DNA of 63,616 nt, counting the filler, from Basidiobolus ranarum (lineage: Eukaryota), in the NCBI GenBank assembly GCA_040143965.1. It is 8 parts of 8 records of this genome, joined end to end, with 100 filler letters (N's around TTAATTAATTAA, not from the genome) between each part and the next. Parts side by side here need not be neighbours in the genome. Positions count along the whole stretch, not along the records: positions 31,953 to 39,821 come from JASJQH010007929.1; 7 more parts are not named here. The stretch is one strand, 5' to 3'. Both the position numbers and the translations under genes were made by a program. Of the stretch, positions 7,909-55,790 are shown in pieces. Each line of letters starts with the position of its first letter. Position 1 is the first letter of the stretch. A model generated the notes under the pieces. That model saw nothing but the letters and a program-made list of their open reading frames with translations, had not been told where the DNA came from and did no database searches.

Positions 7909-8008
7909 NNNNNNNNNNNNNNNNNNNNNNNNNNNNNNNNNNNNNNNNNNNNTTAATTAATTAANNNNNNNNNNNNNNNNNNNNNNNNNNNNNNNNNNNN
8001 NNNNNNNN
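7909..8008. other. Artificial contig-joining spacer (N44-TTAATTAATTAA-N44). Identical spacers at 15900-15999, 23878-23977, 31853-31952, 39822-39921, 47759-47858 and 55691-55790
   Basis: Identical 100-bp N blocks with a six-frame stop linker. The segments between them shrink monotonically (7908, 7891, 7878, 7875, 7869, 7837, 7832, 7826 bp). Confidence 0.98.
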
Positions 8009-15023: not shown

Positions 15024-18000
15024 TTTACCACATTTATTTTTCATTCACATGATATAACACTTTAAAATGCAAGTTAGGAAAGCTGCTTACTGAGTTGTCT
15101 TTATATCTGCAAAGAATGTAACAATTAGCATAATTACCCTAAATTGATTATGCAGATTTTGATGATTTCCATAACTGACAATGATCATCTTAGACTGTAA
15201 ATGGAGATATAGGCAACAATGTAGAATTTTTTTGCAAAGAAAATATTGGCCTCAATATTGATTCAGATAATGCAGATATTGTCATACAAAAAATGCTTGC
15301 AAAAAGTGACTTTGTTATAGATTATAGTGTAAATATCCAAGGCTACCGATCTTAGAAATGTAGCGCGTAAGATAGTAGTAGCTCTTTGAGTATAATGTGC
15401 TATATCCAAAGGATCACTGGCAAGATAAGAGCCGAGGGTGTATTGAGAAAATAGGAATGTGCAGCAAAGATCTCCGTGGAACCAATATCTCCTTCCTACG
15501 TCATGGCAGAGATATACACCATTTGGTATTGGCATAATAGCTCCAATCTGAGATGCTATCATAAATTACTCCATGAATAAGTTCTAAAACGTAATGGCAT
15601 TTCGATATACTAACTAACAGATCGTTTAAAAAGTACATGAGGATCTTCACTATTGCATGACGTAATGGTTTAGGCAATAGATAGTGGGATGAGGGACGTT
15701 GACAGGGCCCTTTACTTAAATCAATGTTGATACCTAGTGTATTTAGTCCAAATAGCGTTTTATAAACTCCTCAATTCAAAAGTCCTACCTAATACTCTAC
15801 CTCTTGTGCGTAATTACTACAAGGATTGTTCCTATATCCGGACAAATATCGCACTTTCTTGATGGTAGGCTCCACAGAGACTTCTCTCAGTCATTCCCCN
15901 NNNNNNNNNNNNNNNNNNNNNNNNNNNNNNNNNNNNNNNNNNNTTAATTAATTAANNNNNNNNNNNNNNNNNNNNNNNNNNNNNNNNNNNNNNNNNNNNG
16001 AATTTGTTGGTAAATTAAATCTTAATTGAGTGTTGAAGTTGCCAGTGCAAAGGGTTAGATGTGAATAGATATTGGTGTGATGACATGACAAGAGAGAATC
16101 CGTTCGATATCTGTATACTAGAACGGATTCCTTAACTTGATCTCTTGTACCAGTTCAGAGGGTCGTTGATTAGCTGGTGCACCATCCGGCAGACCAACCG
16201 GCACCTTATTTCTGGACAGAATATATATTTGACTATGAGTTACACGCATTTACAACAAATATGGTGCTATGATTTCAGAACCTAACTAATAAAGCTACCA
16301 TCCACCCTTTTGGGTACTTCCGGTGGTACACTAACCAGTTCGAATTGAATCCATGAGGGTATTTACTCTCCATCCCTAGGTATTGGTGGAGAAACCAGTT
16401 TGATATCTCTAAATGACTCAGGTACCAAGTTGAATCCTAGGTCTAGAAGATTCTCTCGAGCAATTGCTTTGTGACCGTGACTTCTCTGCAGTTTCGGTTT
16501 GTAGTGAGCGAAGAAGCATCAGAGAAGGCATGGTTTACACTTTGGTGACATGGGAGTGAATTCGCAGGAGGGGGTTTACTCCACATCTTTACTGCGCACT
16601 TTATCTGTCTATTAGGTTAGTCAATTCCTTTATTGTTTCTTGAAATGGATTCAACAATACGGAAACAAATGCTTAAAGGTGTGTTTCACTCTTTCACTCT
16701 TTCACTCCATGGCTCGGCTCGTAGTAAGATCCGAAGAGAAAAATTCAAAGACTGGCAAATGTCGGTGCGCATAAACTGTCGTGAGAACAAGGTGTATCGG
16801 TTAGTTGATTGGACATGCACTCTTTTAAAGATCTCTTATGGGGCTAACGTGGGGCTGCTATTAGCTTCGCAATGCATAGCACCCAAAAAGTACTTCGAGT
16901 GGTTTTCATCGGAAATAGCAAGAAGTCCGGATCAGTCAGAACGAGGGCAACTTACACTTTAGAATCATTGAATTATATTCAGGAAAAATAGGCGGAATGA
17001 CCCATTTTTTCCGAAACTCTCCGTGAAGTCCAAATAAATATTGATAAAATTGCGCAGTATCTTTGAACAACATGCACTAACCAACATTTCTTTCCTTTCC
17101 AATCGAATTGGTATGTGCTACCCGCTTTCATTTTCCTATGAACACATAGAAGACCTTTGACTCGCGGCCATCAACTCTGATCAACAATCCTCAAAGCCAA
17201 TGGCCGAGGTTGATTACTAGATCCTCCGGCGTTATGACACCCCTTCACAAATCAGCAGCATTGTTGATGAGATCGTGATCCTGACCAATAGCTCCGGTTT
17301 TTACGATGATCTCCGCATGGAATTTTGATCAAGTAAGGATTTGGGTAAACCGCATTGATCTACGATCTGGGGAAATATATGGTTGATTTAATGCCCCGCT
17401 CTATATAATATGTATATGCAGACCAATCATTGCGCGATGTCTCGAAAAAAGAAAAATGGAAGTTTAAGTAATTGAGGCAGCATTGTAAATCCAGTGTAGT
17501 AGAACCTGAAGAGTCGGCAGGACAGACTTACATATATATATATGTTGAGTGCTATCCAACACCACTTGCCGACACTCATCTGGAAGAGATGGAAATCATC
17601 GATAACTGAGATGCTATTTAACTATATCCATATATTTCCCCAATATATCGAAAATATCTTCCCATTTTTATCTCGTGTAAATGAGGGGATATCAAAAAGC
17701 CACTGAATTCTCCAATTATATGCTTATACTAGCAAGCCAATGAAAATATCCAATTGCCGGATCGAATAGGGTCGTTTAAATTCTTGGCCACCTGTATTTC
17801 GCATTTCCCAATTGGGATTCCTGTCTATTCTTGATGAAACCTACTTATCCTAACAAAGAGTGACAGCATAAATAGTGGAGGCCTGGCACAACGGTCTGTT
17901 CGGATATCTTCTATTTCTTGCCTTTTTGACTGACGTTTCAGCTTCGTTACTTTATATAATTGGACTTGTAAAGTGCAACAGGATTGCACATCAATCAATT

Positions 18001-23877: not shown

Positions 23878-24590
23878 NNNNNNNNNNNNNNNNNNNNNNN
23901 NNNNNNNNNNNNNNNNNNNNNTTAATTAATTAANNNNNNNNNNNNNNNNNNNNNNNNNNNNNNNNNNNNNNNNNNNNCTTTAAGTAATCCAGAATTCAAA
24001 TTCCATGCCTTTAAGGGAGGTTGTCTGCAGCATGGCACCCCATGGCTACGTAGTGATTGAATGACGTGTATTCCGTAATAAATATCCCGTGAGAAATCAT
24101 CGACATCTTAGCAACTATCAAACTTATGCAATGTGTCAGTGGGTTGTCAGCCAAAGGGATCATCATCTACAGAATGATTAGAAACGATGTGTCACTGATC
24201 ATTGATGACCTGAACGATGATCCTCGCTCATCCACTGCTAGCTGTTTGTTATCTAAGCCAAGTAAAAACCCCCCATGTCTATCTGCATTCGTTGAGCAAT
24301 CAATCCATTTATCAAACTATTGCAAATTATAGTGGCTTGGGTTGATAGCAAAAAAGCCAGTTGGATCTTGGTTGGATCCTTTGGTCAGGTAATGCGAAAT
24401 CTATCTAAATAAGACTTGGATCTGAACACTTTGTTTCGTAGGTATTTAGGGAGCAATAGGAACTTTGCAAATCCTTGAAATATAAAAGCCCCATTCGTCG
24501 CCTAACGCTTTTCAAACTCGTATCTACTTAATACACTCCTGACCTCACCGTCATTGTCTTGGCTAATTTCTTGTTCAATAGGTTCTAAAG

Positions 24591-30484: not shown

Positions 30485-30979
30485 TTAGTGACTTAAATAC
30501 CCAGCTAACACTATGGCTACACCACTCAATACTGTTAGTGGTTTGAAAAGTGAATCTCCTCCATTTGGATGGTTACTATTACTTGGGGCTGGAGCTGGAT
30601 TGTTGGCTACTGGAGTAGTTGCTATTGGTTGTTGGGGTGTACTTCCAGAGTTATTTCCATCACCGCCTGGTTGGGTTGGTGCCGGACTTGGTTGAGAATT
30701 TTCCGGATTAGGTTGGTTCTGCGATGTTTGGCCATCATGATTTGGGTTACTAGTATCACTGCTGCCGCCACCATTTCCATTTCCATCACTGTTAGTGTTG
30801 CCATTCCCTCCATTGCCACTACAATATGCCGATCCAGTACCACAGAAGCCCCAAGTAGAACAGCAAGATCCGGTAGGACATTCGACTCCGTTCCCACATG
30901 TACCATCCAAACTGACAGAAGCTTGGTAAACTGGAGCCATACAGGCGATCAAAGCAACAGTTACAAGAGTAGATTTCAT
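30485..30979 (-). CDS. Secreted, probably GPI-anchored hevein-like (CBM18) chitin-binding protein
   Basis: Likely start is MKSTLVTVALIA (signal peptide). Hevein motif CGNGVECPTGSCCSTWGFCGTGSAYC, a G/N/P/S/T-rich stalk and a hydrophobic C-terminus. Confidence 0.88.
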   Translation of the reverse strand: MKSTLVTVALIACMAPVYQASVSLDGTCGNGVECPTGSCCSTWGFCGTGSAYCSGNGGNGNTNSDGNGNGGGSSDTSNPNHDGQTSQNQPNPENSQPSPAPTQPGGDGNNSGSTPQQPIATTPVANNPAPAPSNSNHPNGGDSLFKPLTVLSGVAIVLAGYLSH

Positions 30980-31952
30980 GGTTATATTAATGATTTGGTT
31001 TAGTGATCGGATTGTGTGATATCGTTTGATATTCAAGGTTAATGAGCTTTCTTTAAACCTTGCGCTCTCGTATTTATACACGTAAAGAGGTGCTCCCATG
31101 TTCATGCAAATTGAATACCACTCTAAATGTTACATCATTCCGTCACAGAATCTTGGAATTTAAGTCATCCATTCGTAGGAATGGTGAATTTTGCATCATC
31201 ATGGAAAGATCTATCCAAATTGCTCGGTCAACATTGCTACTAAAACAGATGATAACTCACTCGATATCACCCAGCAAACCTTAGCCACTGGGAAGTTAGT
31301 TACCAGTGCCACACCTAGTTCATGATGTATGTAACTATGCAACATCACAAGCGCTATATTGATATCTAAATTCGAAACTCACTACTCCTACCATAACAAG
31401 ATTAAATGGTCCTAATCGCATAAATCTCCTTAACTATGTAGATTAAGTTACTTTATGCCTCTTTACTCAGCTTCTTCCTATTCTTATTGTAGTTGATTGT
31501 ATACATCCAATTTTTCTGCTGCTTGCTCTATCACCATTTGGTAGCATTTCTTGTCAGCTTTAGGGTACCATGGGAGTGCAAGCCTATTTGTGTATGTGTC
31601 TCTCTCAAATCTAACACTATTCTTCCCATCAGTTAGAAAATTAATGTTATTTGCTAGTATAGATGATGCTGTGCACCAGCATACAAAGTTGTTTAACTTA
31701 CACCATCTCTATACAACTTGAATGAGTATCTGTTTACTTTATTGGACTTGTTCCTTTGTGCCAGGATTTATTGGACCTTGGATCAATATATTAGAGTAAA
31801 TGTGATTGAAATTGATCATGCCAGAGGGTGATGGATAGTGCCAAATTGTGCCNNNNNNNNNNNNNNNNNNNNNNNNNNNNNNNNNNNNNNNNNNNNTTAA
31901 TTAATTAANNNNNNNNNNNNNNNNNNNNNNNNNNNNNNNNNNNNNNNNNNNN

Positions 31953-32159
31953 CAAGTTTATGAAGAAATGCGGGATACTTGCCAAGCAATGAAGCGCAAT
32001 ACAAATCCTCCAGGCTTTTGTCGCGATAGTGGAGATTGCCAAGCAGGGTATGAATGCCGTAGGCACCAATGCTGGAAGTCGATTACCAATATAAATTCTC
32101 CTGCGTTTTGCCGAGATAGTGGTGATTGTGAATCAGGCTATATGATTAGTACCAATTGA
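31953..32159 (+). CDS. 3' end of a short paralog or truncated duplicate of the Cys-repeat nuclease gene (5' part lost at contig start)
   Basis: 31953-32144 is colinear and highly similar to 34460-34651 (192 bp). It then diverges and stops at YMISTN*. Confidence 0.7.
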   Translation, partial: QVYEEMRDTCQAMKRNTNPPGFCRDSGDCQAGYECRRHQCWKSITNINSPAFCRDSGDCESGYMISTN

Positions 32160-33796
32160 TATATGTCAACTCTCGTGTTTCGTAATGTCTACGGATCAGT
32201 ACAAGACTCATGTTGATATTTGTAACAAAAATGATTAAAGTATCATGAAAGGAATTCCGGTTCAATTGATTTATTGGCAACACATATTGTATTTGGATTG
32301 TATGCCCAACAAGTGAATTAGATTTAACTTGGATATTGTGTATATAATTATACAGCGAAAACCATTTGTTTCATTAGCAGTGGACATGCTGGGCGCTTGA
32401 TTGGGAACTCTTAAATCCCAAAAGATTGAATCCATAGAAGAATAAGTACTTAAATTGATTTTGTGATTAAAGAATACATGTCAATTTATATTCAAGAGGG
32501 CATCTAAATTTTACAATACTCAGGCTATCAATCAATCTAACATTTTTTGTTTATATGATTTGCTTGTACTCGATCAGGCTGAATGTTTAATCCTATATTT
32601 TTGCATTCAAGAGTTACGGCATGCAAGATATACTATCTAGTAAAAAAGTGCATGCGTTATCTCCCTTTTCGATTTAATGACAACTCTATTTGGAATTTAA
32701 ATGATATATTTGGATTTGGTAATCATCTGTGTACTATTACCAAATTCAGAGCACATACACTGCAAGCAAGGCATTTTCTAAGTGGAAATTGCAGTACATT
32801 GAGTTTCTCCAATAATTTTTTCCTGGAATTTTCCAACTAATGAATTGTACTACAAAATCCATGCTAGAGGTCTGAGTCAGGCAGAAATATTTCGGTGTTG
32901 GCTAAGTTAGTATATGTAGTTAATTACAGGAAAATCTGGCTAGGATAGAAAAGGCGATCTGGAATCGTGTTGTCATCTTGCCATTTAATACTGCCTTCGT
33001 AGAGTCACCTAAGTATCCTAATGCGAGAAAGTGTGACTTAACTCTACTTAACAGGTTAAATATTTATGCACGATCATTTTTGGTCGAAGAGGCTGGTATG
33101 TATCGGCAGGAAGAATTATACAATAGTTCAACTATAAAATCCAAAACCTTAAATTTTTCAACTAATGTATTGTACTACAAACTGCCGAGTAGTTGCTGCC
33201 AAATATTGAATCACAAATTACAAGCACATAACTATGGTGGAGCCCACCTTAATATCATGACTCTCGTGCCTATCTAGTTGAAATCCTATGGTTTGAGGAT
33301 TTTGTAGGAATTTTGAGAACTACAGTAATTATATATCACATACAGCTGATCGCTGATTGTTCAGAATTAAAGTTTAATTATCTTCAGAGAAACACTAAAG
33401 CAAACGTTCATAGATCTTTTGCAACTGACCAGCTTGTTAAGAAACGTGAATACTCCAAGTTTACTTTGCCAACGGATAAAATAATGACACTCAACCCGAT
33501 TATACCAATGAGCTGCAATATTCGGTTTTCTATATCTTACTTGTATAACCTGTACCAAGTTTTTGCAATAAAATTAGTAGCATCATTAAGACTTGCAAAC
33601 TTCCACTGTTACAGCAATTATAGCATCGCATAGTATTGCAGATTGGAATGGCAAAATGGAAGATGGTCATATAATGAAAAATATCACTGAGGATGTTCTT
33701 ATCACATAAATACCTTAAATATCTTTGCAAACAAAGACCCAAAGTCATATTGGAACAGCTGTTGAGTCGGCACCAAATAACAAATCAATTCTTCAA

Positions 33797-36700
33797 ATGC
33801 TTCGTTGGAACATTGTACTCCGAACATTGCTCTTGCCAGTATGTTTCTTGCTCTATGCTGAGGGGCTAATATCGACTCGTCCATGTAACTATAAAACCTA
33901 TCCCTTGGGATTAAGCTTGAGCAGCCAGGATTCCCCACCTACGGTGCAGACACCAGCTAAGCGTGACTCCTATAGGTGGCCCATACACATCAGACGGTGT
34001 GAGTTTGGAGGTCTTATGCCACTGATGGCTACTGAATTTACATGTGAAACTGTACGTAAAATTTCAAATACTAAATGTGGCTCTAAACCGTAATCTCTCA
34101 GCTCTTCTTTGATCTTTTCAAGCAATTAACCATTTATAATATCCAACTAATAACTTGCTGTCTCCAACCATATAGCCTCTTCATATTACTGGTTGCAGTA
34201 GTATTTCACCCAAGTGCACCTGTGCTGACGTTCCAAAAGCTTGGGAGATTGAGGCTTGTTATGGAATCCTTGAGTCACCAGTATCTAAAGAGTGTATGGA
34301 CGGCATTTGGCGGAAATTTAATTGTCCATTACCAATGCTGGATCCTTATGGCCACGGGTTAGTATTTATCATATCCAAGTATCATACAAAACGTGCCCAT
34401 TACTAAACGAATTGCTTGAAAATTGGATTTATCAAAGGTGGTTTTATGTCGATGTCAATCAAGTTTATGAAGAAATGCGCGATGCTTGCCAAGCCATGAA
34501 GCGTAATACAAATCCTCCAGGATTTTGTCGCGATAGTGGAGATTGCCAAGCAGGGTATGAATGCCGTAGGCACCAATGCTGGAAGTCGATTACCAATATA
34601 AATCCTTCTGGGTTTTGCCGAGATAGTGGTGATTGTGGACCGGGCTATATGTGCCGCATGCACACTTGCTGGAAGGAAATCACTAACCCATCACCATATA
34701 ACGCATGTAATGACGAGAATGACTGTCCAGGAGACCAGACTTGCATTAACGGCCGATGTGGCAACGAAGAACAACAGAGTCAGTGCAAAGATGAGAATGA
34801 CTGTCCTGGAGACCTAGTTTGTAATCATGGTACTTGCAGCGATGAGAATAATGCTGAACAGTGCAAGAGTGAAAATGATTGTCCTGGAGACCAAGTCTGT
34901 AATCATGGTACTTGCAGCGATGAGAATAATACTGAACAGTGCAAGAGTGAAAATGATTGTCCTGGAGACCAAGTCTGTAGTGATGGTACTTGCAGCAGTG
35001 AGAATAATATTGATCAGTGCAAGAGCGAGAACGACTGCTCTGGAGACCAAATCTGTAACCATGGGGTTTGCATTGATGAGGATAGTGCTAATCGGTGCAA
35101 GAGCGAGAACGACTGTCCTGGGTATCAAGTCTGTAACCAAGGTATTTGCAGTGATGAGAAGAATACTAATCAGTGTGAAAGTGAAAATGACTGTCCCGGA
35201 GACCAAGTCTGTAATCACGGCACTTGCAGCGATGAGAATAGTGCTGATCAGTGCAAAAACGAGAACGACTGTCCTGGGTATCAAGTCTGTAACCACGGTA
35301 TTTGCAGTGATGAGAAAAATACTAATCAGTGCAGGAGTGAAAATGACTGTCCCGGAGACCAGGTCTGTAACCATGGTACTTGCAGCGAGGATAATACTGT
35401 TAATCAGTGCAAGAGCGAGAACGACTGTCCTGAGGATCAAATTTGTAACCATGGCATTTGCAGTGATGCAAAGAATACTGATCAGTGCAAAAGTGAAAAC
35501 GACTGTCCCGGAGATCAAGTCTGTAACGAAGATATTTGCAGTGATGAGCAGAAGTCTGAACAATGCAGGAGCGAGAACGATTGCCCTGGAGAGCATGTCT
35601 GTGATAATGGTACTTGCAGTAGCAATAAGAACACCGGCCAATGCAAGACTGAGAATGACTGTCCTGACGACCAAGTTTGTAATAACGGTGCTTGTAGTGG
35701 AGAGAGCAATGCTAGCCAGTGCAAGAGAAAGAAAGACTGTCCTGACGACCAAGTCTGTAATAATGGCACTTGCAGTGACGATAAGAATACTGGCCAATGT
35801 AAGAGTGAAGAAGACTGTCCTGACGACCAAGCCTGTAATATCGGTACTTGCAGTGGAGACAAGAATGCTGACCAATGTAAGAGTGAGAACGACTGTCCTG
35901 AAGATCAAGTTTGTAATAACGGTACCTGCAGTAGTGATAAAAAGCATGCTCAATGCCAAACGGATGCTGATTGTCCGCAAGATACCGTCTGTAATGATGG
36001 AACTTGTAGGGAAATGGTGAATGAGAAGCAGTGCACTCAAGAAGATGACTGCCGAAATGGTCAAACATGCCGCAATGGCACCTGTAGTGATATCGAATTG
36101 AAGAAATGTAGGAATAACGGCGAATGTGGCTCTAAGCAAGTATGTATTAATGGATCGTGTACTAACCAACTCATTGATGAGCCTCAGTGTACTTCAAATC
36201 GAGACTGTGGTAGAAATGAAAAGTGCAAAAAAGGAAAATGTAAAAGTGATGGCGGTGGTTTTTTCCCATTACCATTACCACTACCATTGATTCCGGGATT
36301 CCCTCCTGCATTTTCACCAATAACTTGTCTGCCAGGCTACTGTCTATCCCCTTGGTGCCCACAATGTAACAACAATGAAAAAAAATATGATCCTCCATCA
36401 AAGAAGGAATACAAACCCTCATTTCAATGCAAAAAGGACCAGGACTGTCTCGGAGATAAAATCTGTCTCCAAAATATCTGCAAAGACCCTGGTGTCGATG
36501 GATGTAAATCTGATGATGAGTGCTTTGGTAATATGGCCTGCAGAAATAGGATTTGTACTGGATGCCTTGTAGATACAGATTGCCCAGGGTCCTTACTATG
36601 TCGATCAAAACAATGCGTCAGTTGTGATCAACTGGAAGGCCATTTATTCAAGCGCAGTTTCCCCATAAATTTTATCCAGAAGCGAGCTCAAAGTTGTCCT

Positions 36701-38057
36701 AACAATTGTGCTAACCATGACACCAAAGAATGGGGTTTATATTCAAAGTACGCCAACAAAGATGATATCATCAAGATAGGCGACCGTAGTACCTTCAAGT
36801 TGAACGATGTTTGGAAGGACTTGAAAGAGCAGGTGGAAGATAAGTGTGGCTCTATTTTACCCGATGGGAGTCTTCCGGATTTACGAAAAATGCCAGGCAG
36901 TAAGACCGTTTCAAGGGCGGTTCTGTGTAAAACAGAAAACACCGGACCTAAAAAGCCACTCTATGTGAATATTTACAATACGGATACAATGATGGCCGAG
37001 ATGAGCATTTATCGACTGGATCCTGCAAACCTAAAAAGTAATGGGAAGGATAAGCGACAAAAATTTTATCAGGAACGAGGCTTGAACCGGAATCTGCAGC
37101 CAAACCGTCAATCGAATATAGCCACTGTGAATGGACAAGTGGTACAATATGATCGGGGTCATCTTTTTCCAAATTCTGCAGTGAATATCCCTTCACAACG
37201 GGCAGCAACCTTCAGCTATATGAATCAGGTTAGTTGAATGAGGGATCATTTGGGTATCATAAATCATACATTAACTTCATCCTTAGGTACCCATGCATAA
37301 AGCTACCAACCAACATGGGTCATGGAGGAGCTCGGAACGATTACTTAGCTATTATACAAAATCCGTAGGACGTCAAGTTTGGGTTGTATCCGGCACATGG
37401 GTAAGTCCCACCGCGAAAGCCTCCGGACTGAACGTTGGAGTGCCCACACACATGTATCAAGTCGCTTGTGACATCATCGCTGGGTCATCAATTGGATTTT
37501 GGGCCTACAATGACCCAGATGATAAGGCACATGGATTAGGATTCAGAGCTCATTCAGTCAAGTTTATTGAGCAGCGAATTGGTTTCAAAATCTTTCCAGA
37601 TGATTGTAGTGGGGGTAAATACCAAGTAGATCAATGGTTCGAAGAAGCCGAAAAAGTAACATCATCTAATTGTCTCTCTTTTCGTGATTACTACGAAGTA
37701 AATGGAATGGCACAGCTGAAGCAGGTGCGAGGTTGCCAAAAGATTACTATGGATGATGACGAATGTCTCGAAATACCAAAGTCCCCAGCAGGTATACAAG
37801 GGCGCTTGGATCAGAAGATAAAAGAACGCCGCGAGAAAGATCCTGATTTCGAACCTAGCTCTTGTGAGGAGTCTGATGATGATTATGATAAAACTGAGGA
37901 TGAAATATTGGATGATGACATTGAAGTAATTGAGGATGGCCGGAAACAATCAGACTGCATGGTAGAATTAGATCGCAGAGCTCACTTAGACAGAGGTTGC
38001 AAGCCAAAGCGGTTTAGTGCAGATGACAGTTGTAGCGATTATGAGGTAGATTACTAG
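33797..38057 (+). CDS. Large secreted Cys-repeat protein with a C-terminal DNA/RNA non-specific (His-Me finger, Endonuclease_NS) nuclease; ~1332 aa
   Basis: Exons 33797-34051, 34176-34357, 34438-37228 and 37287-38057 have GT-AG ends with consistent phases and total 3999 nt. Signal peptide MLRWNIVLRTLLLPVCFLLYAEG, ~25 C-x5-C-x5-C-x4-C modules, and nuclease motifs YDRGHLFP...ATFSYMNQVPMHKATNQHGSWRSSE...VWVVSGT...VGVPTHMYQV. Confidence 0.88.
34700..36245 (+). repeat. Coding tandem repeat, ~78-bp unit (CKSENDCPGDQVCNHGTCSDExxxxQ), ~20 copies
   Basis: Directly visible in the DNA and in the 971-aa ORF translation. Confidence 0.95.
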
Positions 38058-39921
38058 TATTAATATCCATCCTTTTGATATCAGCGTATAGTGTTCATTA
38101 ATTATATTTGCACCTTAATAATTTTAATAAAGCCATGCATCCACATTTTCTATCTTTGCCTGGCATTAAGTGCTCCTACTATACTATGTCTTTACTGCAA
38201 AAAGCTCGTACAGCAGCTGCTGAAGTGACATCTTATCCTTTCATATAGTGATGTTTTGGTGTAATCGCATGCACCACAAATATGTTTTAAGTAATGGAGA
38301 ATTAGCTGCCTCTAATGTGTGCTAACTTGGGCCAGTCCTACACTTGGAGGGATCCCAACAAAAATTGCTGTTTTAGTTGATATTGAAAAATTTTTGGAGT
38401 GTTTTGATGCCAGTAGAAAACAATCAATTCAATCCCAATTGGACAAATGTTAATTTTTCTCATTTTGAAATACTATAGTACACCAACATACAAAGTTACT
38501 TAACATATGCCATTTGTATGCAACTTGCATTAGTATCTGTTTGTTTGTTACCATTGCTAGCAAGTTACCTGACCTTCACCATGACTCTATCATGTGACCT
38601 ATCCCATGGCTACTAATCTCTTCCATTTCCCTTCTATTGAAGCATATGCCCTATTGCATGATCATTATCAAATTATTATTATCTGCCAAGTCATCTGCCA
38701 ACACACAAGTCAATAGGAGTCATAAGTATCATGGCCAATGATTTTCACTACCAAGAATTCAGCTGATGCATTATTTACTTATCTTTTTATCAATGTATCC
38801 AATCACATTTCTTGTTTACAAGAATTAGTCCTCTATTTTCTTCGTGCTGAATAATGCACTCTGCTATGAAAAAGTAGAAATATAGTTAACTGAACCTTTT
38901 GATTTAGTGTGTGTCTCAACAAATATGGGATCTCAACACTTGTCAGTGTGCTCTAACAAATTCAATCTTCCCCTCTTATTTCTATCCAAGCCTAGTATCC
39001 ACTAGCATCTACAGAACACCAAGCCTAGCTGCTTAGCAAACCTAATCTCTACTGCAAGATAGCAAATCACTGCTATTCACAAGACTCATATTGGTTAGAT
39101 CTGCTTGATTAGTATCTCATGAGTAAACAGTTCTAAGACCCTGCACTTAACTATTTTCTTGATTCAGCAAAGTTCAAGACTTTTTATCTACTTACTCTTC
39201 GACACAACAAATACCATAACTAACTGATCAACCAAGGCTAACATCTGTAGAGTATTCATCCAGAACATATCTTTTATAACTTGAATAAAAACTCTCTGCT
39301 AGTAATTTTAACTGATGTTAAAGTAGAGAGCACTTTAAATAAAGCTATCAAAGCAAAACCCATTGATGAACCTGCCATACATGAACTGCTCTGATTCACC
39401 AAAGTCAATCCCTAACAATAATAAAATCAATTTGATCCGGATTGGATCCACCCTTCAAAATCTCAAAACCATCAGAGAACCATCACAGTATTGATGGCTT
39501 GCATTCTGCAAGGGATTTTGATGGTGTGATGGTGATTTCTTGATGGTATTTTGAAAGTATTCATATATGTAAAAGTATTGATCCTCATACTTGGCATGCA
39601 TTATTAATTTCCGGCACCTTCTGCAAAAATATAATTTTGAATGGCAAATTCCTGGGTTTACTGCTGTAGGAATTCAAATTAATATGCATGCCTTTATTTA
39701 GATATTTTAGGCTTTGTATTCCAGCCATAATGAGAATCAAAAAATACAAGAATCTTGTTGTGTTTAGTCTATACATATGCACATATTTGACTGATTAGAC
39801 ATAACTTAACAACATCAATATNNNNNNNNNNNNNNNNNNNNNNNNNNNNNNNNNNNNNNNNNNNNTTAATTAATTAANNNNNNNNNNNNNNNNNNNNNNN
39901 NNNNNNNNNNNNNNNNNNNNN

Positions 39922-47176: not shown

Positions 47177-48277
47177 ACATCCAGTGAATATTCCTATGAG
47201 CTTCAACTATTGAACACCACATCTTCCAGTCCCAGCCTAACTTGAGCACCTATGCTTTTTTAACTCGGATGAAGCTATGTACTATGCTAACCGAAGAATA
47301 TTGAACCTCGATCACATCAGATGTTGTTTATCATTACATCAATCGTGAATAAGACCAACCGAGTCGTTATTTCCCATCTAATAATTGAACCTTGAAACCT
47401 CCACTTGTCAGCTCCAGTTTGTTATGCGTTCCTTGCGAGATGGGATCACCCTCCCGATGATTAAAGGATTTTTGGAGATTAATAAAAGTATGGCACATAA
47501 AACCAGACTGCGTAGTTTTGGATACAATGGCACCCCTGAATTTGTTGTGACTAAATAGGCCCCTTTCATAGCCAAGAGGGATGAAATTTAGACATGGTAA
47601 TGAGACAACAATAACATGGATGTGCTTCACACAAACAATCCATCATGATGGAGGAAAGCCCCCCTCTCTATATAGCAAGTTATTACTCTCGCTGTGAGCA
47701 GTAGGTCCGTCGAGACTGTCGTACAACCAGAAGTGGATTTCAGTTCGAATTACCGGCANNNNNNNNNNNNNNNNNNNNNNNNNNNNNNNNNNNNNNNNNN
47801 NNTTAATTAATTAANNNNNNNNNNNNNNNNNNNNNNNNNNNNNNNNNNNNNNNNNNNNACATTCAGTAATTTGTAAGTTACAAACTAGGGGATGAACTTA
47901 CTTTGTCAGTTACCCAAAATTGTAATTTGACAATAATAAATTGGTTAACTTGGTATGGGCTGGCACAATATTTCCAATAAAATCATTGTGTCCAATTGTG
48001 GTGGGATAGTGCCATATTGCTCCTTATAGTGTCCAATCAAGTGTTATATGACCCAGCCATGGTAATTGAGAGATTGCACCAGATGGTGTACTAGCAGGTT
48101 GGATCAAGCAGCACAATCTGACCGGGTCCAATGGAACAAGTCATATATATATACATCCCGGACATTATAAAATGGTTTAACATAGAGAATAGCAGGCCTG
48201 TATTAAGGACAATGAATCCCTATTTGAAATTAATCAAATTTCATTCAATTTGGCTATATATGAATTAATATGCAAAC

Positions 48278-54930: not shown

Positions 54931-55790
54931 GGTGCCAGGCCCTCGACACACTTGTGTCAGGGCAAGCAATGCAAAACCCATGAGCACAGAGATATGAGCT
55001 CAGTATTGGGTGGTCACTGCTGTCTGAACCTTACATACTCTACCAAACTACATCCAGAACATATCGTGCAAATTATTGTGAACTATTGCTCATGTAGCAA
55101 AGTTTAATTGAATTAGACTGCTATATACAATTTCTGCTACATATCAGTTTTTGGATTAAATTGGTATTGAACAAACTTTTTGAGCAGTGAGCTTGCTGAG
55201 GAGAGCTATATGGAACAGCTCAATGGATATGTGCATCTAGAAAATTCTATAAAAGTTGCAGATTGTGGAAAATACTCTCCAGCTTAAAACAATCTCTCAG
55301 AGCTTGAAAAGCAGGATGTATGCTTCTTTGGGAGCACTTATGTTCCAAAGAGTAATGTTAATCATAGTATTAACTTCTGGCCAGATATGCCAAATCCAGT
55401 TTGATCAGGTTTATATGTAGATCCCTTAATTATAGATACTAATGGACTTGTTTTCTATGATAGTGGCAGATTTTGCTGCATATGTCATATTAGATAGAGT
55501 TTCTAAAAATCAAGCAGCAGATTTTGGCAATATTTAGCACCCTCTGGCATGATCAGTGTCATGATTCCAATCTTGGCATACTCATCCACTGCAAATAGGA
55601 CTCTTCTATTATTAGATTGTGACATCATATCTGCTGTGCCATCCCTTCTTGGCATTCTTGTGTGAGTTCATCCAGGTTACCTTATGTGGANNNNNNNNNN
55701 NNNNNNNNNNNNNNNNNNNNNNNNNNNNNNNNNNTTAATTAATTAANNNNNNNNNNNNNNNNNNNNNNNNNNNNNNNNNNNNNNNNNNNN

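Follow-up and report, generated by a model that had tools for sequence, protein, structure and literature searches.

A predicted secreted PF01223 nuclease behind a cysteine-rich DUF7107 module array in Basidiobolus ranarum

The DNA/RNA non-specific nucleases of Pfam family PF01223 include the Serratia marcescens enzyme, Anabaena NucA, EndoG/CPS-6 and EXOG, and the mitochondrial Nuc1/EndoG proteins are compact, with about 300 amino acids (aa) and a mitochondrial presequence. A secreted fungal nuclease, SiNucA of Serendipita indica, has a functional signal peptide, acts extracellularly and is called a small secreted protein in its description (10.1101/2022.03.11.483938). An extracellular nuclease was also purified from Basidiobolus haptosporus by Desai and Shankar (2000), according to an entry in the reference list of PMC2390534. 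The present analysis concerns a gene of Basidiobolus ranarum at positions 33797-38057 (+) of a 63,616-nucleotide stretch of DNA from that genome (the window). The gene encodes a 1332-residue protein in which a PF01223 nuclease follows 25 cysteine modules, and its best reading, which we hold to be probable, is an extracellular nuclease carried on a Cys-rich stalk. SiNucA is likened to this protein by description, not by sequence, and differs in being small. In the literature on Basidiobolus and nuclease no title on this gene was among the matches listed, and a search for "nuclease Bh1" found no paper.

An earlier note on this DNA had described a single spliced protein of 1332 residues, with three introns of which the third divides the nuclease active site. 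The gene lies on a contig of 7869 bp (31953-39821), and its real genomic context is that interval only. All GT/AG pairs that keep the frame open were enumerated and the junctions were inspected; a single model with consensus-like signals remained. It has four exons on the plus strand (33797-34051, 34176-34357, 34438-37228 and 37287-38057), separated by intron 1 (34052-34175, donor GTACGT, acceptor TAG), intron 2 (34358-34437, donor GTTAGT, acceptor AAG) and intron 3 (37229-37286, donor GTTAGT, acceptor TAG). The spliced coding sequence of 3999 nt yields 1332 aa with 129 Cys and is, after translation, letter-for-letter the NCBI entry "hypothetical protein K7432_012303 [Basidiobolus ranarum]" (database protein P0001), in agreement with the earlier description.

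Intron 3 falls between N1075-Q1076 and V1077-P1078 of the nuclease. PF01223 profile positions 20-107 are matched by exon 3 and positions 110-217 by exon 4, and splicing joins them into one continuous match (aa 984-1179, 87.3 bits). Since the two halves are collinear across exons 3 and 4, the division of the nuclease by this intron is strongly supported, as had been proposed. Exon 3, which runs uninterrupted for 2.79 kb, holds both the modules and the N-terminal half of the nuclease, so the fusion of the two does not depend on the intron calls. One exon spanning both regions speaks for one gene rather than separate repeat and nuclease genes.

The nuclease domain occupies aa 896-1195 (36686..37643, +, with intron 3 inside). 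Its PF01223 score of 87.3 bits compares with a curated cut-off of 23 bits, and the match covers profile positions 20-217 of 223. In an alignment of 50 rows (A1, the query and 49 matches), G1053, H1054, N1075, N1084, W1089 and E1093 all stand in invariant columns; H1054, the His of the RGH motif and the predicted catalytic residue, is encoded at 37160-37162 (+). From work on Serratia nuclease and EndoG, we take the residues with roles in catalysis to be the RGH His as general base, the metal-binding Asn, and the Glu. An AlphaFold (AF2) model built from alignment A1 had a mean predicted local distance difference test score (pLDDT) of 80.3 and a predicted template-modelling score (pTM) of 0.81. 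Foldseek matched this model to Serratia nuclease, EndoG, EXOG, NucA and CPS-6 at E values of about 1e-11 (5.6e-12 for 1qae).

Superposition with VIA-align gave the highest score to EndoG 3ism_A (Z 22.9, root-mean-square deviation (rmsd) 2.7, 218 residues), with Serratia nuclease at Z 20.5-20.9 and EndoG, CPS-6, NucA and EXOG at Z 20-23. Across the solved PF01223 nucleases the common fold is thus shared at Z 20.5-22.9 and an rmsd of about 2.7-3.8 over 204-235 residues, together with the RGH His, the Asn, the Asn...Trp pair and the Glu, at a sequence identity of just 17-22%. By sequence alone, a search of the PDB returned only EXOG (E 0.008), with RGH, N..W and E paired in the alignment. These results support a C-terminal domain of the Serratia/EndoG beta-beta-alpha-metal type with catalytic residues intact and predicted activity. 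The NucA/EndoG-type nuclease of the earlier note therefore stands, both in the profile match above the curated cut-off and in the fold predicted for the region behind the Lys-Arg (KR) sites. Unlike the nucleases of known structure, the Basidiobolus domain lies at the end of a 1332-aa Cys-rich protein of secreted type, is extended at its N-terminal side by additional helical sequence (model residues ~14-57) and is followed by an acidic tail (~137 aa). Mitochondrial Nuc1/EndoG differs likewise, being compact and preceded by a presequence, whereas this protein is long, has a signal-peptide-like N-terminus and contains 129 Cys.

Ahead of the nuclease, a regular-expression parse found exactly 25 modules of the form C-x5-C-x5-C-x4-C, 22 before and 3 after a Pro-rich hinge, which matches the earlier count of about 22 modules, a hinge and 3 more. 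Modules 1-22 (aa 176-747; 34526..36241, +) are joined mostly by 8-residue linkers. The hinge, FFPLPLPLPLIPGFPP (aa 748-809; 36242..36427, +), contains a CLPGYCLSPWCPQC cluster and four Cys outside the modules (aa 776, 781, 786 and 789), and modules 23-25 follow it (aa 810-872; 36428..36616, +). On the DNA, Tandem Repeats Finder reported a 78-nt period with 14.8 copies and 77% matches. The modules belong to Pfam family DUF7107 (PF23416), which was found in 14 stretches with 230.5 bits against a cut-off of 24.6 bits (E 1.5e-69); the 48 positions of its profile correspond to two modules. Dickkopf_N, EB and Squash were also considered for the modules and rejected, either because they miss the curated cut-off in the full-length protein or because they reflect generic similarity of Cys pattern. 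A PDB sequence search with the modules gave no match at E up to 0.01, and a full-text literature search found no paper containing "DUF7107".

Divergence between modules was estimated from 17 regular modules (136 pairs). The proportion of synonymous differences (pS) was 0.71 and that of nonsynonymous differences (pN) 0.21, giving a ratio of nonsynonymous to synonymous divergence (dN/dS) of about 0.11, a rough value with synonymous sites near saturation. The modules are under strong purifying selection and are maintained as coding sequence. The array is old and kept by selection, and not a recent product of slippage. Module blocks shifted by four modules (104 aa) aligned at 67-69% identity (34682-36241, +), in an alignment for which MAFFT placed the blocks largely by self-identity; from the four-module offset alone, a higher-order repeat unit of four modules is suggested within the array.

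A homologue search with the module region (aa 230-760), made among proteins of 732-2331 aa, returned 16 other proteins at 25-32% identity, the best non-self array being 28% identical. PF23416 was listed in 15 of these 16. Their partner domains were Stig1, GLEYA, FG-GAP/VCBS, Dickkopf_N, Big_1/Big_2, TSP_3 and trypsin, and PF01223 was found in none of the 16. The named sources were two ascomycetes and one metagenome-assembled genome of the Myxococcota; the two best matches whose sequences were read (P0152 and P0155) look bacterial and start like lipoproteins. DUF7107 proteins of fungi and bacteria thus share with the Basidiobolus protein the module, the long arrays and an extracellular-type layout, and differ in the low identity of their arrays and the lack of a nuclease partner.

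Relatives of the nuclease (aa 896-1230) were sought with HMMER among 1.84 billion representative proteins at E up to 0.001. As proteins of more than 50% identity are merged in this library and other Basidiobolus genomes lay outside the search, orthologues in sister species of Basidiobolus may exist. There were 214 matches, just 6 of them at 1e-10 or better, the protein itself included. Among the nuclease relatives scanned, PF01223 was present in 14 of 14 and DUF7107 in 0 of 14. The combination of DUF7107 with PF01223 is unique in the searches made, each part being a known family; the earlier note had not recognised the architecture as described, and no other protein with it was found, the modules themselves having already been a Pfam family. 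Further PF01223 fusions among the matches joined the nuclease to an Mfa-like fimbrillin domain (P0036, P0145), to GH10 with Ig-like domains (P0138) and to Spherulin4 (P0012).

Two trees were calculated, one with FastTree from 89 rows (matches ranked below 90 left out) and one with IQ-TREE from 36 chosen rows; source names were obtained for 30 of 149 nuclease matches. In both, the nearest rows were four chytrid proteins (Geranomyces variabilis KAI8584961.1 and KAJ3169069.1, Rhizophlyctis rosea KAJ3032899.1 and Dinochytrium kinnereticum KAJ3194285.1), with a support of 82 in the Shimodaira-Hasegawa-like approximate likelihood ratio test (SH-aLRT). A Colponema protein joins this group (SH-aLRT 86), and a wider clade of 22 rows (SH-aLRT 94) also holds fish ENDOD1 and bird, sea anemone, dinoflagellate-cluster and protist proteins. 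Rows labelled "endonuclease G" or "NUC1" fell mostly in the opposite clade of both trees, and the Basidiobolus nuclease does not group with them, with the exception of P0016, which lies in the same large clade as the query. The placement is tentative because the branches are long and the support is SH-aLRT without bootstrap.

The chytrid and Colponema proteins share with the Basidiobolus protein a motif behind the nuclease, ..HS[VL][KR]FIE[QE].. and then ..FP/YP..C, and differ from it in an identity of at most 30%, in the absence of DUF7107 modules and in their long branches. The best non-self match was animal and of ENDOD1 type (Channa striata KAK2863309.1, UniRef "Endonuclease domain-containing 1 protein"); it stands in the same 22-row clade but on another sub-branch, has three nuclease stretches (P0002) and lacks a Cys-module array, the Basidiobolus nuclease lying on the separate, long-branched chytrid sub-branch. 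A bacterial origin was rejected as the best reading, the nearest labelled neighbours being eukaryotic and the domain carrying a spliceosomal-type intron; tree support is moderate. A eukaryotic, probably vertical origin tentatively fits better than a recent bacterial transfer. The phylogeny that the earlier note had called for thus places the nuclease, with moderate support, beside chytrids in a mostly eukaryotic clade that contains ENDOD1.

Of the chytrid proteins, P0009 and P0026 start with a signal-like hydrophobic segment, as does P0041 of Colponema, and about 390 (P0009) and 570 (P0026) residues without a Pfam family precede the nuclease. In P0041, hundreds of Pfam-less residues lie behind the nuclease. 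P0009, P0026 and P0041 appear to belong together in a so far unstudied group of large nucleases of secreted type in early-diverging fungi and protists. These three and P0003 are of secreted type or unclear, and are not compact mitochondrial enzymes. The contrast drawn earlier between this protein and compact, mitochondrial fungal members is incomplete, as it leaves out the signal-bearing chytrid proteins and the animal ENDOD1-type relatives.

At the N-terminus, aa 1-23 (MLRWNIVLRTLLLPVCFLLYAEG; 33797..33865, +) resemble a signal peptide, with two Arg, a hydrophobic core and then A-E-G. The highest 19-residue Kyte-Doolittle window of the whole protein (1.82) is found here, and since all later windows are at or below 1.19, no membrane span is evident behind the signal peptide. 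The next part is an orphan N-domain (aa 24-170; 33866..34510, +, across exons 1-3 and introns 1-2) with 10 Cys and a KR at aa 55-56. Both elements had been proposed earlier, and both were found: the N-terminus is the sole signal-peptide-like segment of the protein by hydrophobicity, and the N-domain is small and Cys-rich. Pfam contained no family matching the N-domain, a search for homologues over 264 aa returned the protein itself as sole match, and the protein atlas gave no usable match. Two weak matches were treated as noise: Pvc16_N for exon 2 (E 0.022, 14.9 bits against a 27-bit cut-off), and a cytokine receptor from the PDB sequence search with the N-domain (E ~0.05 over 35 residues).

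The protein ends in an acidic, Cys-containing tail (aa 1196-1332 plus the stop codon; 37644..38057, +) with 7 Cys and a net charge of -18; the modules carry about -63 and the nuclease about +10. PDB sequence search and the protein atlas yielded no usable match for the tail, and no signal of glycosylphosphatidylinositol (GPI) type is evident, the C-terminus having no hydrophobic stretch. Secretion is supported by the sole hydrophobic segment at the N-terminus, by seven N-x-S/T sites in the module region and by 129 regularly spaced Cys. The signal-like N-termini of P0009, P0026 and P0041 point the same way, as does the company that DUF7107 arrays keep elsewhere, which consists of extracellular domains (GLEYA, Stig1, FG-GAP, Big, TSP3 and trypsin).

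Between module 25 and the nuclease lies a linker (36617..36685, +) with two dibasic sites, LFKR↓SF (K884-R885; 36650-36655, +) and IQKR↓AQ (K894-R895; 36680-36685, +). Kexin prefers an aliphatic residue at P4, and both linker sites carry one (L and I). The nuclease model leaves the stretch with these sites disordered, the first 23 residues after R895 having a pLDDT below 50. KR pairs are confined to this module-nuclease linker. In Kex2-processed fungal repeat proteins a dibasic site (KR) ends each repeat unit; here the inter-module linkers have no KR, the only one in the array being at aa 575 inside module 16, and the array is thus not a repeat protein of the kind that Kex2 cuts into its units.

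From these features we infer a secreted protein of about 145 kDa that would enter the endoplasmic reticulum by its signal peptide, where some 128 Cys would form disulfides. The 25 DUF7107-type knots and their short linkers would then make a strongly acidic, bead-chain spacer behind the orphan N-domain; this geometry is suggested by the Cys spacing and the shortness of the linkers. The C-terminal part would be a basic, divergent and catalytically complete PF01223 DNA/RNA non-specific nuclease, followed by the acidic tail. Such an enzyme would degrade extracellular DNA and RNA, either on its spacer or after a kexin-type cut, and a cut at a KR of the 24-residue linker would release a product of about 50 kDa. 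In the gut, dung and soil where this fungus lives, the simplest role would be to recycle or scavenge nucleic acid, followed in likelihood by breaking down the extracellular DNA of biofilms or traps.

Several observations weigh against this reading. Introns 1 and 2, which join the signal peptide to the rest of the protein, are predicted solely from splice signals and open frames, and the signal peptide itself was judged by rule of thumb. The gene comes from one fragmented assembly, as a singleton on a contig of 7.9 kb. The nuclease is a remote, long-branch member of its family, its best non-self match having 30% identity at E 3.6e-15. An AF2 model of eight modules reached a pLDDT of 59 and a pTM of 0.21, and this low-confidence model, in which each module seems to form a small hairpin between weak linkers, was not taken as evidence for an extended spacer. 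The KR sites do not stand out statistically: seven KR dipeptides were observed against 3.7 ± 1.8 in shuffled sequences (P = 0.07), a KR pair within 10 residues arose in 8.7% of shuffles (P = 0.087), and KR also occurs within folded parts (aa 575 in module 16 and aa 1018 in the nuclease). Of the kexin-type release sites claimed earlier, the two close KR sites are thus present and a significant enrichment or clustering is not; kexin cleavage in the linker is plausible and statistically weak. Finally, the near-invariant Q of the "PQ" motif is replaced by M1079 in alignment A1, and the inert nuclease-like domain of autotaxin also fits the model, at Z ~20.

The last two points also speak for the first of three rivals, all of which we regard as improbable. 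The possibility was considered that the nuclease-like domain does not cut, having a binding or structural part as in autotaxin, and that the protein is an adhesin or matrix component on extracellular DNA or another polyanion. ENDOD1 is termed an "atypical nuclease" in the abstract of 10.1101/2020.10.14.339309. The domain is very divergent and has Met in its PQ motif, and DUF7107 arrays co-occur with the adhesin-type domains GLEYA, FG-GAP and Big. However, the query retains every residue that is invariant across the 50-row alignment, the RGH His, both Asn and the Glu among them. Inert homologues usually lose such residues.

The earlier note had framed the architecture as polymorphic-toxin/effector-like. 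As an antagonism toxin, its N-domain would bind a target cell, the stalk would present the nuclease, proteolysis at KR would free it, and competitors or host cells would be killed. The layout of secretion signal, long repeat region, protease-type sites and C-terminal nuclease resembles such a toxin; the orphan N-domain is compatible with targeting, and elsewhere PF01223 stands behind surface-type domains, in the fimbrillin (P0036, P0145) and GH10 plus Ig-like (P0138) fusions, whose origins are unlabelled. Nevertheless, the search for the N-domain or the modules fused to other C-terminal domains gave only the protein itself for the N-domain, and for the modules 16 matches, all at or below 32% identity and lacking a listed toxin-type domain. 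At 28% identity, the best non-self array looks bacterial and carries no toxin domain, and neither the 16 DUF7107 proteins nor the 14 nuclease relatives show the other half of the fusion. Pfam recognised no translocation domain in the full protein, and a free nuclease would have no evident route into a target cell. The 1.76 kb downstream of the gene (38058-39821, to the contig end) contains only two minus-strand open reading frames, of 69 and 72 aa, and no plausible candidate for an immunity gene.

With neither swapped-tip relatives in the searches made nor a candidate immunity gene downstream, membership in a polymorphic-toxin family becomes less likely, the framing is not upheld, and we consider an antagonism toxin improbable. 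An equally improbable extension is a eukaryotic counterpart of the stalk-borne nuclease toxins of bacteria, in which the N-domain would dock on another organism or a DNA-rich matrix, the acidic chain and tail would mask the basic nuclease as DNA mimics, and kexin would arm and release it, for interference competition or to cut the extracellular traps of a host, whether in infected tissue or in the vertebrate gut. The least probable alternative is a gene-model or assembly artefact, with signal-peptide exons from another transcript or a decaying pseudogene in a repeat-rich, fragmented region: the contig of just 7869 bp starts with a truncated, 94%-identical partial gene copy and no orthologue was found in the searches made, but the 3999-nt frame is open over four exons with consensus-like splice signals, the modules show a dN/dS of about 0.11, no catalytic residue is lost, the module-nuclease join lies inside one exon, and a 129-Cys protein without a signal peptide would be implausible.

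Should the extracellular nuclease be expressed and functional, it would be the first PF01223 nuclease found on a DUF7107 array, and the widespread, uncharacterised DUF7107 would gain a concrete setting as the spacer of a secreted enzyme. The gene also directs attention to the secreted, ENDOD1-related nucleases of early-diverging fungi (chytrids and Basidiobolus), a lineage that has been little studied and is separate from mitochondrial Nuc1. For Basidiobolus, an inhabitant of vertebrate guts that occasionally infects humans, an extracellular nuclease would be relevant to nutrient scavenging and the handling of extracellular DNA. All of this significance derives from analysing the sequence of a singleton gene.

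At the very start of the gene's contig, positions 31953-32144 (+) hold a truncated near-copy of the beginning of exon 3, equivalent to aa 154-215. Over about 192 nt the nucleotide identity is ~94%; the similarity ends abruptly after "GYM", and a stop codon follows. The fragment could represent a truncated paralogue, a piece of a pseudogene or a leftover of the assembly, and it hints at a second copy of the gene in the genome.

The window as a whole consists of eight contigs of about 7.9 kb each, joined by N44-TTAATTAATTAA-N44 linkers at 7909-8008, 15900-15999, 23878-23977, 31853-31952, 39822-39921, 47759-47858 and 55691-55790, and genes that face each other across a linker are not real neighbours. 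On the contig that precedes the nuclease gene in the window, a stop-to-stop frame of 214 codons is present at 30485-31129 (-). Read from an internal Met, it has a signal-like segment, the Cys motif CGNGVECPTGSCCSTWGFCGTGSAYC, which we take to be hevein-like, a Gly/Asn/Ser/Pro-rich region and a hydrophobic C-terminus. Its predicted product looks like a GPI-anchored, chitin-binding wall protein.

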